Origin: a virus
Lineage: Duplodnaviria; Heunggongvirae; Uroviricota; Caudoviricetes
IMG/VR virus record: IMGVR_UViG_2675903313_000009
DNA length: 64,000 nucleotides
Strand: one strand, 5' to 3'
Numbering within the stretch: the first letter of the stretch is position 1; every line of letters starts with the position of its first letter. Positions 44,334-62,104 of this stretch are shown one piece after another. Both the position numbers and the translations under genes were made by a program. The notes under the pieces are model-generated. The model was not told where the DNA came from. It worked only from the letters and a program-made list of their open reading frames with translations, and did not search any database.

Positions 44334-44395
44334 AACAAAAGGGTGAAATGTGATATAAATCCGCCATCCCGATTTGACTTTTCATGGAGGAAAAC

Positions 44396-44719
44396 ATGTC
44401 GAACGAGATGGCGGGCGTTACAACAGAGCAAGTTGAGCGTATTGCCGCGATCGTTGCTCGGGAGGTTGTTGGCAAATTAGGTAAAGAGCTACGTGAAGAA
44501 ATTGGCCAGGAGGTCAATGATCAGCTGAAAACCTACTTTGGTGATATGACCCCGGCGCAACATAGTATTCAACACTCCAATCTGGACAAACTCCTTAACC
44601 GGTTAGATTCCATCTCAAGTGGGTTCTTTGGCGGCATTGTTTCTAAAATAACGTCGTTCATTATTACCGCACTGCTTTTGGGGTTAGCCGCGTATGGCGT
44701 AAAAAGTGGACTGCAATAA
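44396..44719 (+). CDS. Putative holin or lysis regulator
   Basis: Single C-terminal transmembrane segment; directly upstream of endolysin-position gene. Confidence 0.4.
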   Translation: MSNEMAGVTTEQVERIAAIVAREVVGKLGKELREEIGQEVNDQLKTYFGDMTPAQHSIQHSNLDKLLNRLDSISSGFFGGIVSKITSFIITALLLGLAAYGVKSGLQ

Positions 44720-44732
44720 CAGGAGATCAAGG

Positions 44733-45425
44733 ATGAAGACTCCGAGAGGCATTCGTAATAATAACCCCGGTAATCTTGATAAAGGATCACCGTGGCAAGG
44801 TCTGGTTGCGAATCCAGACGAACCGCGCTTTTGCACGTTTAAAGACCCTGTTTGGGGGATTCGTGCGCTGGCGGTGACTCTAATTACCTACCACGATAAA
44901 CGTCGCGCAAAAGACGGCTCAAGTATCGATACCATTCGTGAAGTTATTGAACGCTGGGCACCGCCGAATGAAAACAATACTGACGCCTACATTAATGAGG
45001 TGTCTAAAGCCGTTGGTGTAACCGCAGACATGATCATCGATCTGCATGATTACGACATCCTTCGACCTTTGGTTGAGGCAATCATTCGCCACGAGAATGG
45101 CCGAGGCCCGCTAAAAACGCTGAACACCTGGTATGCGGCAGAAGTTATTGAGGAAGGTCTGCGTCGAGCTGGCGTTGTTAAGCCGGTGAAAACCGTGAAG
45201 GCTGTTCCTGTAACTAAAGAAACCGCAGGCGCAACTGTTACAGCAGGTATTGGTCTGGCGCAGCTGGCCGATGTTATGCCGCAGGTTTCCGCTGCTATGG
45301 ATAAAGCACAAGGTCATATCTCTAGCGGGGATACAGTACGCATCATCTTCGGTATTGCCACTATTGTTGTGGCAGGATTCATTGCCTGGTCGCAGGTAAG
45401 AAAACACCAGAAAGGGATGGTCTAA
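44733..45425 (+). CDS. Putative endolysin (by position), C-terminal hydrophobic segment
   Basis: AGGAG RBS; lies between holin-like and spanin genes; enzymatic family not assignable. Confidence 0.45.
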   Translation: MKTPRGIRNNNPGNLDKGSPWQGLVANPDEPRFCTFKDPVWGIRALAVTLITYHDKRRAKDGSSIDTIREVIERWAPPNENNTDAYINEVSKAVGVTADMIIDLHDYDILRPLVEAIIRHENGRGPLKTLNTWYAAEVIEEGLRRAGVVKPVKTVKAVPVTKETAGATVTAGIGLAQLADVMPQVSAAMDKAQGHISSGDTVRIIFGIATIVVAGFIAWSQVRKHQKGMV

Positions 45426-45426
45426 T

Positions 45427-45678
45427 ATGCTAGGCAGCCTGATGACAAAGCTAAAAGTTGCTTTGATTACGCTGGCTGCCGTTCTTTTCGTTCTGGTCGG
45501 CGCTTACACGATGGGCGGAAATGCGGCGCGACGAGCAATGGAAGAGAAGGCAAAACAGGAAGACAGGAAACGACTTCAAAGCACAGTGGATGTCAAAAAT
45601 GAAACGGTTAATGAAGTGCGGCAAAAAGATGCCTCTGGTGTTCATCGCGAGCTGTTTGATAAATGGGTGCGTGATTAA
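45427..45678 (+). CDS. Inner-membrane spanin (Rz-like)
   Basis: N-terminal TM helix then charged helical region. Confidence 0.6.
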   Translation: MLGSLMTKLKVALITLAAVLFVLVGAYTMGGNAARRAMEEKAKQEDRKRLQSTVDVKNETVNEVRQKDASGVHRELFDKWVRD

Positions 45679-45826
45679 GACGCAGGCTCCAGGCGTGCTA
45701 TTCTGCGATGCTGCAAATCCTATCTATGTGAGTAGAGAGGATTTTATGACTGAGGAAACGGAGCGACAGTTGCTTATCCACAATACGATAGGTGAAAGGC
45801 TGTGTGAGTGGGGGCACCTGAACTGA
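45599..45826 (+). CDS. Outer-membrane lipoprotein spanin (Rz1-like), overlapping Rz in +1 frame
   Basis: Lipoprotein signal ending LINGC; overlaps Rz 3' half and extends beyond it. Confidence 0.5.
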   Translation: MKRLMKCGKKMPLVFIASCLINGCVIKTQAPGVLFCDAANPIYVSREDFMTEETERQLLIHNTIGERLCEWGHLN

Positions 45827-56746: not shown

Positions 56747-57217
56747 GTGAAAGCTGATTTGTCAAAAATCCCTTCTATTTCAGGAAATAACGGTTATTCA
56801 CTTCGTTGTGAGGAAGTAAAGATAAACGGTGAGTCGGCATATTGCAGCTACTCCGTTTGCCAGCACACCATTCTTGCCTTCAAAGAAAACCGTCTTCCTC
56901 GAACTTCATTCCAGTCGTGCGCAACCGCTATCAAAGCAGGCAAATGCAAGGCGTTAAAAATGATGGTTGAAGAGATTCGTAAAGGAGAATCTCTGTATTT
57001 CGAAGATATGACCGCGCTCATTAAGGAGGTTGAAGAACGGAATAAACAAGCCAGAACTTTAAAACGAAAACGTGACAGTGTAACGATTAATAGCATGGTT
57101 AAGAAGAGCACCACATCACAAACAGCGATCACTGACGTGTATGCGGCGTTGCTTGAAGAAACAACAAAAGAAACACATGAGCAAATCGATCAACATATGG
57201 AGGTAAAACAACAATGA
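56747..57217 (+). CDS. Hypothetical protein
   Basis: 156-aa ORF (GTG start in track). Confidence 0.4.
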   Translation: MKADLSKIPSISGNNGYSLRCEEVKINGESAYCSYSVCQHTILAFKENRLPRTSFQSCATAIKAGKCKALKMMVEEIRKGESLYFEDMTALIKEVEERNKQARTLKRKRDSVTINSMVKKSTTSQTAITDVYAALLEETTKETHEQIDQHMEVKQQ

Positions 57218-58536
57218 AAAAGTTGATCGCACTTAAGCATAAGCTGGACGAAATGAAAGCTATGGGAACCAATGCAAAAAAAGAGGCATTGGCCAACATG
57301 GATGACTTCGAGCAAAGCATGGTTTCATTGATGCTCAACCCTTTCATCCGTTTTGGGGTAAAGAAATACAAAGTGGCAGAGCCGCTTAGTGAGTCCATCC
57401 CAAGTGACGAAAAAGCCATTGATGTACTGAATAAGCTGGCCTCTCGCGAGCTAACGGGGAACGCAGCAATAGCTGCTGTTGAGTCTATCGTGGCGTCAAT
57501 GTGCGCCGATGGGCAGGACGTGTTCCGTCGTTTCCTCTTAAAAGACCCGAAAGCGGGTGTTGGGATTAGCCTATGCAACAAGGTTTTTGAAAATCCCATT
57601 CCGAAATTCGAGGTGCAGCTGGCGTCACCGTATAAAGAAAAAGGCGACAAATACCCCTTCAAGCCAAATCCTAAAGCAAAATGGCCGATGATTGGCAGCC
57701 TTAAGCTCGATGGTTTGCGAGTAATTTGCGAGGTTATTGTTGACGAAGAAGAGGTTAACTTCCTTTCTCGTACTGGTAATCCAATCACGTCTCTCGATCA
57801 CCTAAAGCCAGCCATGCTCGAATTAGGCAAACTTTCAGGCCACAAACACATCTTCTTCGATGGTGAAGGCACAGCCGGTTCATTTAACCAGTCCGTATCT
57901 GCATTGCGCAAAAAGAACGTGCAGGCAATTGGCGCTATTTATCATATTTTCGACTTCTTCCTACCGGAATGGCGAGCACAGGCTAAATCCAAAGAGTATG
58001 CAAAGACAGGTATGAAGCTGAAAGAGCGCCTGGCTATGCTGGTGGCGTTGTTCAAAAACGATCGCAGTGAAGGCTACACACAAGACATTCACCTGCATCC
58101 GTTCTATATCATCCATAGCCACGAAGACTTCATCGAACGCTTCATGAAACGCCTGGACGATAACGAAGAAGGGGAGATGGGCAAAGATCCGAACTCTGTT
58201 TACGAGTTTAAACGTACCCGCAGCTGGTGGAAGTTAAAAGACGAAGATTCAGAAGATGGTGAAATTATCGACTTTGAGCCGGGCGATCCGGACTCTGGTT
58301 TTGCCAACACGCTTGGAAAAATTGTTATTCGCCTTGAAAACGGTGTGATTGTTCGTGCGAGCGGCATTAAGCATAAATATCTGGACGAGATCTGGAACAA
58401 CAAAGAGAAGTACCGTGGTCGTATTGTCGAGGTTCATTGTCACGAGAAAACGCCGGATGGCAGCTTACGCCACCCACGACTGAAATGGCCGCGTTGCTTA
58501 CGCGATACAGAAGATCGAATCGGAGATAAAGAATGA
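57214..58536 (+). CDS. ATP-dependent DNA ligase
   Basis: Adenylation motif I KLDGLR (SLKLDGLRV); about 150-aa N-terminal extension. Confidence 0.85.
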   Translation: MKKLIALKHKLDEMKAMGTNAKKEALANMDDFEQSMVSLMLNPFIRFGVKKYKVAEPLSESIPSDEKAIDVLNKLASRELTGNAAIAAVESIVASMCADGQDVFRRFLLKDPKAGVGISLCNKVFENPIPKFEVQLASPYKEKGDKYPFKPNPKAKWPMIGSLKLDGLRVICEVIVDEEEVNFLSRTGNPITSLDHLKPAMLELGKLSGHKHIFFDGEGTAGSFNQSVSALRKKNVQAIGAIYHIFDFFLPEWRAQAKSKEYAKTGMKLKERLAMLVALFKNDRSEGYTQDIHLHPFYIIHSHEDFIERFMKRLDDNEEGEMGKDPNSVYEFKRTRSWWKLKDEDSEDGEIIDFEPGDPDSGFANTLGKIVIRLENGVIVRASGIKHKYLDEIWNNKEKYRGRIVEVHCHEKTPDGSLRHPRLKWPRCLRDTEDRIGDKE

Positions 58537-58712
58537 TGCTCGGTTGGATGATTGCATTTTTAGCAGTTGGTTTTTTCATAGGTATTGTGGTGATGTCCAG
58601 TTGCATCAATGACTACATTAAAAGCGGTGTTATAGAAAGACGCGGTCGTATTTATCGCATTGTAGAAATAACCAACACCGTGAAGGAGATTAAGGATGAT
58701 CGTATTAAGTAA
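58536..58712 (+). CDS. Small single-pass membrane protein (paralog 1)
   Basis: 58-aa ORF found by eye; TM helix then RIYRIVEIT; start overlaps ligase stop (ATGA). Confidence 0.45.
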   Translation: MLGWMIAFLAVGFFIGIVVMSSCINDYIKSGVIERRGRIYRIVEITNTVKEIKDDRIK

Positions 58713-58911
58713 ACGGGAGAAGGAAACGCTTCATGAAATCAGTAAGTGGCCGGAGTTCCCTGAGTACTGGAAGCCTAAAACGCGAGCTAAGTTAGAGCGT
58801 TTAGGGTTGGTTGCAAACGTTTCTGAAACGTGGTGTTCGGCCAACTACCAGTTAACTGATAAAGGGAAAGTATTGCTACAGCAATTAGTAGAATCAGGAG
58901 TGTTAAAATGA
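58696..58911 (+). CDS. Hypothetical small protein
   Basis: 71-aa ORF overlapping neighbours. Confidence 0.4.
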   Translation: MIVLSKREKETLHEISKWPEFPEYWKPKTRAKLERLGLVANVSETWCSANYQLTDKGKVLLQQLVESGVLK

Positions 58912-59060
58912 TTCCATACATCTCATTAGCTTTTATGGGTGGCTTCCTTATCGGCTTCGGCATCTGTCGTGATTTAATTAAGCAGGAACTTAAAACCAAA
59001 ACACTGTGCATCGGAAAGCGTGTGTATCGGGTAGTTCATGAAACAAAGGTGAAAAAATGA
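58908..59060 (+). CDS. Small single-pass membrane protein (paralog 2)
   Basis: 50-aa ORF found by eye; TM helix then RVYRVVHET; ATGA overlaps at both ends. Confidence 0.45.
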   Translation: MIPYISLAFMGGFLIGFGICRDLIKQELKTKTLCIGKRVYRVVHETKVKK

Positions 59061-59347
59061 TCAATTTGACTTCTTGGAACTGGTGGTTGGCCACCTATTT
59101 CTTAGCGGCCGGAGTCGCATTCGCCTTTTACGTAGGTCAGTTAGTCGTAAAACTGTTGCTGATTAAATTTGCTAGTCATAAACGTATCGATGATGGTCTG
59201 TGGCGTCTTGGCACCCTGGTGGAAATTCGCTACGGGCAACTTAAGGAGAACGAAACCATTACTATCCAAGCGAAACGATTCACTGCCACCATTACAAGAA
59301 CACCTAGTCGTAGAGTGGCCTTGATCAAAAAAGTCACAACCGAATAA
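59057..59347 (+). CDS. Small membrane protein (paralog 3)
   Basis: N-terminal TM helix; basic C-terminus. Confidence 0.5.
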   Translation: MINLTSWNWWLATYFLAAGVAFAFYVGQLVVKLLLIKFASHKRIDDGLWRLGTLVEIRYGQLKENETITIQAKRFTATITRTPSRRVALIKKVTTE

Positions 59348-59356
59348 AAACATATT

Positions 59357-59378
59357 GATAAGTATTTACTTACTTATC
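59357..59378. promoter_or_regulatory. Palindromic GATAAGTA..TACTTATC motif copy (full 8-bp arms)
   Basis: gataagtatttacttacttatc. Confidence 0.45.
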
Positions 59379-59553
59379 TTTTGTGTATAAGATGACTTTG
59401 TTTTCGTTGAGACGCGACTGTTTGAACTTAAATACAAGTGCAAACGAAGAAGTCTATCTGGCAGTAGCCTAATAAGCCAAACACCAGCGAGGTCAGTTTC
59501 CAGCCTCGTTACCGAAATGGGACACACTGAGCGAGTGTGATTGCAGAACGCAG

Positions 59554-59576
59554 GAGGGAACATTCATGTTCCCTCC
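59554..59576 (+). other. Perfect 10-bp-stem hairpin
   Basis: ggagggaaca/tgttccctcc with 4-nt loop. Confidence 0.5.
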
Positions 59577-59582
59577 GATGAA

Positions 59583-59661
59583 GTAACAGAATGGGCGGTT
59601 GGTATATTTTCAACTCCATATGACTCCCGGATTCTTAGCCACTGACCGCCCATCCTGTTAC
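59583..59661 (+). other. Long-range stem-loop (17-bp stem around ~45 nt), candidate structured RNA
   Basis: gtaacagaatgggcggt pairs with accgcccatcctgttac. Confidence 0.4.
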
Positions 59662-59736
59662 GTCATTTTGTTCAATTATGTCGTTTATACTGGGTTAAAA
59701 AGCGGCGACGTAGCCCGGCTGGTATGGTTAGCCAGC

Positions 59737-59859
59737 ACACAACGTTGAGGCCATTACATTTTTATCAATTCTAAGGTTCTATTCACAGAGATACCGGCGA
59801 ACGTTGATATGTAACATGTTGGGCAAACATTCAATCGGAGTAGTGGCCTCAACGTTGTG
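59737..59859 (+). other. Long stem-loop H1 (ACACAAC..GTTGTG termini)
   Basis: 16-bp stem acaacgttgaggcca/tggcctcaacgttgt around ~90 nt. Confidence 0.45.
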
Positions 59860-60125: not shown

Positions 60126-60200
60126 GATGGTGTAGCTCAGCGGTAGAGCAGTTGGCTGTTAACCAACTGGTCGGTGGTTCGAATCCACCCACCATCGCCA
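60126..60200 (+). tRNA. tRNA-Asn (anticodon GUU)
   Basis: Cloverleaf folds by hand; anticodon loop CUGUUAA; CCA encoded; not the E. coli Asn tRNA sequence. Confidence 0.85.
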
Positions 60201-60205
60201 ATTTA

Positions 60206-60292
60206 GGGGAGTTAGTCCGTAGAGGTAGCGGTGTAGACTGTAAATCTACTGTCATGGCGACTCGGGTGGTTCGACTCCATCACTCCCCACCA
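60206..60292 (+). tRNA. tRNA-Tyr (anticodon GUA), long variable arm
   Basis: Anticodon arm gtaga-CUGUAAA-tctac; acceptor ggggagt/actcccc; CCA encoded. Confidence 0.75.
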
Positions 60293-60296
60293 AATT

Positions 60297-60372
60297 GCCG
60301 GTTTAGCTCAGTTGGTAGAGCAGTCGCTTTGTAAGCGAATGGCCAGCGGTTCAAGTCCGTTAACCGGCACCA
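60297..60372 (+). tRNA. tRNA-Thr (anticodon UGU; assignment tentative)
   Basis: Acceptor gccggtt/aaccggc; anticodon loop UUUGUAA with one mismatch in stem. Confidence 0.65.
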
Positions 60373-60462
60373 ACACAACAGGTAAGAGCATTGGGCGAAT
60401 CGGCGATACTGACCCACAAGGCCGTAAATCGATAGAGTCAGACCAGTGCTCTTACCGTTGTG
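60373..60462 (+). other. Long stem-loop H2 directly after tRNA-Thr
   Basis: acacaacaggtaagagcattgg pairs with ccagtgctcttaccgttgtg. Confidence 0.45.
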
Positions 60463-60562
60463 ATGAATGCACAGGCTGATGTGCCGCAACTACAGTAGTG
60501 CGCGCTTTGCGGGGCTTGCTACAACCCTGTGTCGGAGTTCAGTACCGACCATCACAATAGCT

Positions 60563-60649
60563 GGAGAGTAGGGAGCATGGTGCTCAAGCGGTCTTGAAAA
60601 CCGTTCCATTGTGCAAACGATGATGGTTCGATTCCATTACTCTCCGCCA
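60563..60649 (+). tRNA. tRNA-Ser (anticodon UGA), long variable arm
   Basis: Acceptor ggagagt/actctcc; anticodon loop CUUGAAA; CCA encoded. Confidence 0.8.
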
Positions 60650-60841: not shown

Positions 60842-62104
60842 TTACTTTACATAGTCGCCCAGTTTTAATATTTCGCGCTTATATTCTTTAACCATGCTAC
60901 TGGATTCAGTATAAATTCGATTTAAAAGATTATCGCTATCTTTATTCTCATTTATCTTAATGAGTGATAATTTAAATTCATAGTCATCAAATGCCACAAT
61001 CAAATGGTGGCCTGGGATTATATCTTCGTCACTCTTGAAGTATATATCTTCAAGTATGTAATCTAGTTGATTAGATTTTCTTTTCTCGATGTAATCTTCA
61101 GCCATAGCTATTACATCATTCCTGTCATTTAACCTGTTTTTTTCGGAAGGCACATCTTCGTAATGTTGCACGATTGAACAACCAATAAGGCGTGGGATGT
61201 AAACGTCAAAATGAGTAACTCTATCATTCGCGGTTTTAAGTTGTTCCTCAAAGTAGTTTCTTACATGTAAAGGCAACTTCTCAAAGTAATCATTAATTAT
61301 AGGAGAACAAGGAGTTTTATAATTCATAAGAACCGACGGTACGAGCTGTGGGCGTCGAAACATCCAGTCCCTTTTAACGTCCGATGGAACATAATAACTT
61401 TTAATGATATTATCAAAATAATTTATCATTCGAGATTTGAATATTTTATTGAATCTAAGGTTTATGAATGTATCCAGATAAGGCATATTTGAATAAGCAT
61501 CATCAAAAAATATTTCATCATTGAAAAAATCATATTTATTCAATAAACAACACAGTTTTTCCGAATTAATATGTTCACAATAATCGATTTTTAATCCAAA
61601 GATAGCAATGATCAACTTCATCTGAGGTGGGATTTTAAAAATTAATTGTGATACATACGCTCTTTTTTCCTTGAGACATTCCCCATCAATATAAAATGAA
61701 CTATCCACATACTCAAATATATTAATAATATGCTTCACATACTGTATTACCTCATGCTGTTTTACCAATGGGTAATAGAGTCTATGTAACTCATCGCTGT
61801 TTAAATTAATTTTGTGTTTATCGATAATTTGTTTTGCAAGAAGACATAACGCATCATGTTGATTTAATAAGGAATCAAACCATTGTTTAAATGCACTCTT
61901 TCGCATTTCGAACAATGATTCAGTTGTTAATTGAAGGGCTGAAAAAGCTGCTTTTGCACTTTTTCTCGCTTCGTAGGCATTCCATGCTGTTGCTATAAAA
62001 GCAAATGCTGTAGCCAATGTTCCAACAGTTTGACCATTTAAAACAACCCAATCCCAAAAAATAACGGTGAGCAGTAGTATAATAATGAAAATTAAAAAAG
62101 GCAT
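60842..62104 (-). CDS. AT-rich membrane-anchored protein of unknown function
   Basis: 420-aa minus-strand ORF; two N-terminal hydrophobic helices; GC far below neighbours; own terminator. Confidence 0.6.
   Translation of the reverse strand: MPFLIFIIILLLTVIFWDWVVLNGQTVGTLATAFAFIATAWNAYEARKSAKAAFSALQLTTESLFEMRKSAFKQWFDSLLNQHDALCLLAKQIIDKHKINLNSDELHRLYYPLVKQHEVIQYVKHIINIFEYVDSSFYIDGECLKEKRAYVSQLIFKIPPQMKLIIAIFGLKIDYCEHINSEKLCCLLNKYDFFNDEIFFDDAYSNMPYLDTFINLRFNKIFKSRMINYFDNIIKSYYVPSDVKRDWMFRRPQLVPSVLMNYKTPCSPIINDYFEKLPLHVRNYFEEQLKTANDRVTHFDVYIPRLIGCSIVQHYEDVPSEKNRLNDRNDVIAMAEDYIEKRKSNQLDYILEDIYFKSDEDIIPGHHLIVAFDDYEFKLSLIKINENKDSDNLLNRIYTESSSMVKEYKREILKLGDYVK

Follow-up and report, generated by a model that had tools for sequence, protein, structure and literature searches.

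In phage phi29, the proteins p16.7 and p1 are described as the points at which the replication machinery is anchored to the membrane (PMC4974454). Here we describe a cassette of four small genes, called A, B, C and D, which follows the gene for an ATP-dependent DNA ligase in a 64,000-nucleotide stretch of viral DNA (IMG/VR record IMGVR_UViG_2675903313_000009, Caudoviricetes; the whole stretch is referred to as the window) and of which three members, A, C and D, are predicted to encode single-pass inner-membrane proteins. Like p16.7 and p1, these are predicted to have an N-terminal membrane anchor with the rest of the protein in the cytoplasm, and their genes sit with early replication genes. 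There is, however, no similarity to p16.7 in sequence (no PDB sequence match) or in fold (no significant match in the PDB or BFVD), and the host here is Gram-negative. Other small phage-encoded proteins of the inner membrane are HK97 gp15 and the T4 proteins Imm and Sp, the latter two being made early in lytic growth, although none of these is homologous to A–D. The Hok/Gef type I toxins resemble the cassette proteins in having about 50 residues, one membrane helix and a short charged region and, superficially, in an 'IRYR'-like motif.

The window is an SSU5-like phage-plasmid. Between positions 57000 and 60000 it shares 98.7% identity with Escherichia phage Cyrano, which is the SSU5-like phage-plasmid found in E. 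coli LF82; the figure falls to 79% for Salmonella phage SSU5 and to 76% for Klebsiella phage pJN2-26. Elements of this type are common in clinical Enterobacterales, and the cassette is present in ~650 plasmids of PLSDB, among them pMT1 of Yersinia pestis and Salmonella plasmids of the pHCM2 type; its genes have so far all been called 'hypothetical' or been mislabelled. In all annotated relatives the genes run in the order helicase, primase, two or three hypothetical genes, ATP-dependent DNA ligase, small open reading frames (ORFs) and tRNA genes, and the order within the cassette is the same in SSU5, pJN2-26 and pMT1. A–B–C–D are the last four genes of this helicase–primase–ligase operon and are translationally coupled. 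On the window they are arranged as follows.

57214-58536, plus strand: ATP-dependent DNA ligase, 440 residues, the upstream gene of the coupled chain (Pfam DNA_ligase_A_M, E = 1.2e-12; phrog_114, E = 1.8e-125)
58536-58712, plus strand: ORF A, 58 residues (59 from an alternative ATG at 58533), single-pass membrane protein and paralog of C (phrog_4381)
58696-58911, plus strand: ORF B, 71 residues, soluble (phrog_4054)
58908-59060, plus strand: ORF C, 50 residues, single-pass membrane protein and paralog of A (phrog_6302)
59057-59347, plus strand: ORF D, 96 residues, membrane protein in a family of its own (phrog_4507)

The ligase is 99% identical to that of Cyrano. A preliminary description of this DNA had reported three small single-pass membrane proteins translationally coupled downstream of the ligase. 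A, C and D are indeed in the ORF list where it had placed them, and the coupling is borne out by the ATGA at the ligase/A, B/C (58908-58911) and C/D (59057-59060) junctions. The ORF list, however, holds four successive plus-strand ORFs after the ligase and not three, the soluble and likewise coupled B having been overlooked. It follows that the ORFs are not all chained to the ligase and to each other by ATGA as had been proposed: this is true of ligase/A and of C/D, but B lies between A and C, which are therefore not joined directly, and the A/B junction is a 17-nucleotide overlap. The conserved start of A is at 58536, since the codon upstream, ATG at 58533 in the window, is CTG in SSU5, pMT1 and others; the ligase/A junction can thus be read either as an ATGA overlap (58533-58536) or, from the conserved start, as TGATG. 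Among 68 distinct full cassettes drawn from SSU5-like phage-plasmids, pMT1 included, the overlap is 1 or 4 nucleotides at ligase/A, 17 at A/B in 66, 4 or 1 at B/C in 66 and 4 at C/D in 67. A Shine–Dalgarno-like sequence precedes every one of the four starts. No promoter-like sites were found on the coding strand within the cassette, and the lone terminator-like hairpin, a weak one inside D (59082-59095), is at chance level (4 found, 5.0 expected). The corrected four-gene model with the conserved start of A is new, as are the paralogy of A and C, the recognition of C and D as a core and the repeat-mediated loss of A described below, while the sequences themselves are already in the databases as hypothetical proteins.

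Against diverged relatives in which synonymous sites are close to saturation, the proportion of nonsynonymous differences (pN) lies far below that of synonymous differences (pS) in all four ORFs. Comparison of the window with SSU5 gave pN and pS of 0.14 and 0.57 for A, 0.16 and 0.56 for C and 0.12 and 0.59 for D; for B the values are ~0.20 and ~0.74. Where it could be computed, the corresponding rate ratio (dN/dS) for A–D was ~0.06-0.23, with A at ~0.06-0.18. By these measures A–D are real genes under purifying selection. Conservation in relatives, the lack of which the preliminary description had named beforehand as grounds for rejecting the ORFs, is thus widespread, hundreds of SSU5-like phage-plasmids having the ORFs with purifying selection acting on them. 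When 58450-59400 was used as a blastn query, it matched 791 PLSDB plasmids (from Klebsiella, Escherichia, Enterobacter, Salmonella, Yersinia (pMT1), Citrobacter and Cronobacter), and tblastn located C most often, in 682 PLSDB plasmids, followed by D in 653, B in 637 and A in 532. The four proteins have full-length matches (E = 1e-36 to 1e-57) to four different PHROG families, every one of which carries the label 'unknown function'; the members of phrog_4381, phrog_4054, phrog_6302 and phrog_4507 are SSU5_045-048 and hypothetical proteins of pMT1 and pHCM2 type. These families occur only in the SSU5-like elements of Enterobacterales. Scans of A–D against Pfam, NCBIfam and PADLOC gave nothing significant, and no defence or anti-defence model matched.

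A and C are built alike: each is 50-58 residues long, starts with a very short stretch ahead of its one membrane helix and ends in a basic C-terminal part of 28-35 residues. The two align with each other by blastp (E = 3e-5) and, as profiles, by hhalign (probability 95.4%, E = 1.9e-8, 47 columns). Their alignment is free of internal gaps, with Gly12 and Gly16, which form a GxxxG motif in the hydrophobic helix, Arg38, Tyr40, Arg41 and Thr46 invariant and Lys29 nearly so. A has the GxxxG in its membrane helix and also carries the motif RRGRIYRIVEIT. The motif R-I/V-Y-R-I/V-V..T, which the preliminary description had noticed in two of the proteins, is found as RIYRIVEIT in A and RVYRVVHET in C, and extends to G(R/K)R(I/V)YR(I/V)V..T in both. 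Cross-matches between A and C are reciprocal in tblastn, and in a divergent lineage (L012) the two are 37% identical (E = 2.6e-8). The alignments thus place A and C in one paralogous family, uniting phrog_4381 and phrog_6302, which PHROGs files separately with no link drawn between them. A profile of A and C used to search 5.8 billion proteins and to scan IMG/VR recovered SSU5-like elements only.

The claim that all three membrane proteins are paralogous does not extend to D, which gave no blastp alignment to A or C and an hhalign probability of 0.2%. At the level of these comparisons D is without a detectable sequence relationship to A or C, and only the general build of membrane helix, helix and basic hairpin is shared. 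A likeness of the hairpins that can be seen by eye (GKRVYRVVHET against AKRFTAIITRT) had suggested D as a distant paralog, but was unsupported by hhalign. An AlphaFold2 model of D, made from a 16-sequence alignment, has one long helix over residues 6-61, into which the N-terminal membrane helix continues, two strands (67-71 and 76-80) forming a β-hairpin and a disordered basic tail, with a mean pLDDT of 67. Foldseek found no match to this model at E ≤ 0.001 in the PDB or BFVD, the prefoldin-like shapes that it returned having E > 5 and being meaningless, and D has no relative in Pfam, NCBIfam, PADLOC or the PDB. A HMMER profile search of 1.84 billion representatives gave only 17 matches to D, all of the same family, and those whose contigs were read (P0174, P0176 and P0177) lie in the same gene neighbourhood. 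C is followed, in the L012 lineage, by an ORF of 83 residues that is D-like and built in the same way. The product name 'C-type natriuretic protein', which is widely propagated on D homologs in RefSeq and GenBank (e.g. SSU5_048 and WP_079964113.1), is backed by no family match and is probably an annotation error; the literature held nothing useful on such a protein in phages, nor on pHCM2 transcriptomes.

A, C and D each have one hydrophobic segment near the N-terminus, with maxima on the Kyte–Doolittle scale (19-residue window) of 2.55, 1.84 and 2.00, respectively. No lysine or arginine precedes the segment in any of them, and four follow within 15 residues. Hydropathy, taken with the positive-inside rule, predicts that they are single-pass proteins with the N-terminus outside and the C-terminal part in the cytoplasm, and only 1-9 residues would face the periplasm. 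The hydrophobic helix followed by a short basic tail that had been ascribed to the three proteins therefore stands as regards the N-terminal segment and the cluster of basic residues, but the C-terminal part of D, at 59 residues, is not short.

With a Kyte–Doolittle maximum of 0.33, B is not a membrane protein. It has 32 columns that are invariant across eight diverged homologs, including WKPKTRAKLE. All of its weak matches to winged helix-turn-helix domains fall on residues ~31-66 and below threshold (HTH_45, E = 0.18; the C-terminus of Csa3, E = 0.0015; the HxlR-like 2f2e, E = 1.4), and the annotation in Cyrano is 'putative transcriptional regulator'. From these matches B is possibly a winged helix-turn-helix protein. 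Its single-sequence AlphaFold2 model is uninformative (pLDDT 59), and when PDB sequences were searched with profiles of B and of D, none scored below E = 1.

The loci that were fetched, to which this census is limited, fall into six arrangements.

ligase-A-B-C-D: 79 loci
ligase-C-D: 4 loci (L016-L019)
D alone, no ligase: 3 loci (L021-L023)
ligase-B-C-D: 1 locus (L004)
C-D, ligase mostly deleted: 1 locus (L010)
neither, other genes in the slot: 1 locus (Moellerella, L011)

In the lineage with only ligase, C and D, identity is 74% for the ligase and 33-37% for D, while the small protein has 44-48% identity to C but only 24-30% to A. Since this distant lineage holds only a C-like and a D-like protein, C and D form the persistent core of the cassette, to which A, with B, is an add-on. 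The cassette families evolve much faster than the ligase, D having 36% identity where the ligase has 74%.

A is also lost within close relatives. Among Escherichia records it was found in 139, against 218-220 for each of B, C and D, so that about one third are without it. The gene is flanked by a direct repeat, both copies of which were located by alignment of the junctions.

58522-58538, plus strand: left copy, GGAGAT(A/T)AAG(A/G)ATGAT, at the ligase/A junction, comprising the Shine–Dalgarno sequence and start of A
58685-58701, plus strand: right copy, at the A/B junction, comprising the ribosome-binding site and start region of B, 163 nucleotides downstream of the left copy

The gap in the A-less E. 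coli plasmids is ~163 nucleotides, equal to the spacing of the repeat, and in one of them (L004) the switch from left to right context lies inside the repeat. As judged from these junctions, the A-less E. coli plasmids are the exact product of recombination across the flanking direct repeat. Further natural lesions were seen. In K. pneumoniae pGYB02-1 (L009) C is truncated and fused, and in the Salmonella Derby plasmid AnCo3 (L007 1959-2111) the helix of C is disrupted by charged residues and constraint is relaxed (dN/dS 0.25-0.58). Together with the loss of A and an interruption of D by Tn3 carrying blaTEM-1, these lesions mark the cassette as accessory. Such deletion variants, the natural A-less plasmid CP070074 among them, are ready-made controls, and the cassette is easy to test.

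Expression in the plasmid state can be judged from the study that named Cyrano, in which RNA-seq data for LF82 from overnight LB cultures were re-analysed (PMC9928086). The normalized counts were near the floor for the ligase (CYRAN_36, 5.9), B (CYRAN_37, 6.4), C (CYRAN_38, 5.0) and D (CYRAN_39, 7.6), compared with 151 for CYRAN_40 and much higher values for toxin–antitoxin genes (PMC9928086). The cassette, as measured for the ligase and B–D, is thus essentially silent in the plasmid state. Silence in lysogens fits expression of the cassette together with the replication genes after induction.

By analogy with p16.7 and p1, A, C and D may, very tentatively, form an inner-membrane complex of the lytic phase that tethers a cytoplasmic partner to the membrane. 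C and D, together with A and B where present, would be made with the replication enzymes at the start of the lytic programme and not in the plasmid state. A, C and D would probably assemble through their GxxxG helices and their hairpins into a small complex on the cytoplasmic face of the inner membrane, which could then tie a phage or host component to the membrane during lytic replication, whether DNA undergoing replication or a protein of replication or recombination, with B as a possible go-between. Such a role would be accessory and not essential. A more specific form of the proposal would make A, C and D a hetero-oligomeric platform, with the helices packed through GxxxG and the cytoplasmic hairpins arranged as a small sheet, that together with the winged helix-turn-helix-like B tethers the replicating genome or a ligase-containing replisome, and so constitutes an independently evolved Gram-negative counterpart of p16.7/p1; this we regard as improbable. 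The persistent coupling of C to D and the linkage to the ligase favour a tether, while fast evolution and patchy presence favour a role in exclusion or host takeover.

Several points weigh against a tether of this kind. No experiment or homology ties A–D to DNA, to replication or to any other activity. The cytoplasmic parts, of 28-59 residues with a β-hairpin, are tiny and unlike the DNA-binding domain of p16.7, which is helical and dimeric, and no fold match was found for them. The model of D is of low confidence and that of B adds no information. Linkage to the ligase is not obligatory, C–D being present where the ligase has been deleted (L010) and D being present alone where there is none (L021). 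The speed of evolution and the patchiness, with other genes occupying the slot in Moellerella, fit an interaction with the host or exclusion at least as well as replication. In addition, A is unannotated in Cyrano and so lies outside the expression counts.

Exclusion or takeover during lytic growth is an equally doubtful explanation. Here A, C and D would alter some function of the inner membrane soon after induction or infection, such as the entry of DNA from a second phage, a transporter, the divisome or a membrane-bound defence protein, in the manner of T4 Imm and Sp. The proteins are small, fast-evolving, patchy in distribution and encoded in an accessory slot, all three are predicted to be in the inner membrane, and in relatives the genes found past the cassette are themselves of an accessory kind (Tad2-like, colicin M-like, YebF-like, TEM-1/Tn3 and the caf1 operon). 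However, almost no part of the proteins, 1-9 residues by prediction, is exposed to the periplasm, no similarity to known exclusion or anti-defence families was found in PADLOC, Pfam or NCBIfam, and expression is lacking in the lysogen, the state in which the exclusion genes of temperate phages usually act. Superinfection exclusion by a prophage-expressed cassette is disfavoured: prophage exclusion genes of the HK97 gp15 type are expressed in lysogens, whereas B–D are at background in the RNA-seq of Cyrano lysogens.

The four genes may also have no function in common and simply be independent accessory genes packed together, B regulating other genes and A being a redundant duplicate heading for loss, though this seems rather unlikely. 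Each gene can be absent independently of the others, A having been lost in ~80 of ~220 Escherichia plasmids, C being truncated in L009 and D occurring alone in L021, and the four belong to separate PHROGs families. On the other hand, the 4-nucleotide C/D overlap is kept in all but one of the distinct cassettes, the C–D pair persists even where D is just 33-37% identical, and A is under purifying selection where present.

Membrane-active toxins or modulators of lysis timing (holin, antiholin or pinholin-like) that depolarise or permeabilise the membrane, roles that the preliminary description had raised in general terms alongside that of exclusion factors, are improbable. A single membrane helix with a basic tail and the GxxxG oligomerisation motif would suit such a role, and the membrane helix of D has a very weak match to the holin family phrog_2359 (E = 0.02). 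This is the only holin-family match of A, C or D and is not significant, none of the three genes lies beside an endolysin gene, and their coupling to replication genes would bring about an early synthesis that is dangerous for a holin. The element has a separate lysis cassette 13 kb upstream.

44384-45826, plus strand: lysis cassette, encoding a 111-residue protein whose one membrane helix is C-terminal (phrog_5093), an endolysin of the transglycosylase type (phrog_873) and a spanin resembling Rz (phrog_1275)

The phrog_5093 protein is likely the holin, and A, C and D are unlikely to be holins because the lysis cassette with its endolysin lies elsewhere. A Hok-type toxin was rejected, as there is no Hok_Gef match in Pfam at E ≤ 1, the basic residues are on the opposite side of the helix, giving a predicted topology opposite to that of Hok, and the genes are coupled to an enzyme gene, with starts that overlap the gene upstream, no promoter of their own and no sign of an antisense RNA.

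On present evidence there is nothing out of the ordinary in this set of small, uncharacterised membrane proteins of a phage. Were it to organise replication at the membrane or to block superinfection, this would be a small addition to the biology of phage-plasmids.

The stretch directly past the cassette and the conserved RNA that follows it is, in relatives, a hot spot for cargo. In Y. pestis pMT1 it holds caf1R of the F1 capsule operon (L005 2928-3833), in an E. cloacae plasmid it holds Tn3 with blaTEM-1, which truncates D (L015 2481-3341), and in more distant relatives YebF-like, Tad2-like and colicin M-like genes are found there (L016 4371-8291; L018 6444-7238). In the window this part of the element contains a tRNA cluster (60126-60649, plus strand), which differs among close relatives: the window has four tRNA genes (Asn, Tyr, Thr and Ser), Cyrano is annotated with three (Asn, Thr and Ser) and the stretch of SSU5 that was examined has Asn only. 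Between the cluster and a glutaredoxin gene lies a 420-residue ORF on the minus strand (60842-62104) with an N-terminal membrane helix and no match in Pfam or PADLOC. No ORF of like size and strand is annotated at the equivalent place in Cyrano, where the coding sequences are CYRAN_40 and CYRAN_41, and the 420-residue ORF is a candidate accessory or defence gene.

The RNA itself is unrelated to the question of the cassette but is more interesting and deserves a study of its own. It occupies ~400 nucleotides just 3′ of D (59358-59753, plus strand) and its sequence identity across SSU5, pMT1 and Klebsiella elements, at 80-83%, exceeds that of the flanking protein genes. Its fold has 97 consensus base pairs, of which 18 show compensatory changes, compared with 4.6 in shuffles (none of 500 reached the observed number) and 0-5 in slid controls. 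A helix formed by 59421-59428 and 59745-59753 closes the structure and is followed by (G/A)(C/T)CA in seven of eight sequences. Within it, at 59440-59475, is a frame resembling the tag of a transfer-messenger RNA (tmRNA), GCA AAC GAA GAA GTC TAT CTG GCA GTA GCC TAA TAA, which would encode ANEEVYLAVA followed by two stop codons; the SsrA tag of E. coli is ANDENYALAA. Relatives have ANEDTYLAVA, ANDNQYLAVA and ANDTQYLAVA, the last codon varying synonymously, and upstream of the tag an in-frame start codon is missing from seven of the eight aligned sequences. In AnCo3 (L007, ~2500) the tag frame carries a 1-nucleotide deletion (ANDNQYWQ followed by a stop codon), alongside the decayed ORF C.

The Rfam models tmRNA_permuted and beta_tmRNA match the RNA below threshold. 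A tRNA-like domain was not found in it; ARAGORN reported no tmRNA at default settings and, when relaxed, only the tag with implausible tRNA-like domains. The RNA is unannotated by PGAP among the records listed of 259 E. coli genomes that carry it, and in the rows listed of a Y. pestis catalogue of small RNAs those of pMT1 are at two other positions and not at this one. In a 2014 survey of RefSeq plasmids and phages, ssrA was identified in mycobacteriophages only, Bacillus phage G and mycobacteriophage DS6A being named separately (PMC4131195). From its conserved fold and tag frame, the RNA is possibly a new kind of tmRNA relative or mimic carried by phage-plasmids. The search with this RNA matched fifteen chromosomal places in all. 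Among bacterial chromosomes, that of the E. coli record NZ_LR778147.1 has a feature annotated as 'CRISPR' (1705873-1705905) that is 100% identical to the 33 nucleotides at the 3′ end of the RNA (59726-59758), and which looks, from this identity, like a spacer against SSU5-like phage-plasmids.

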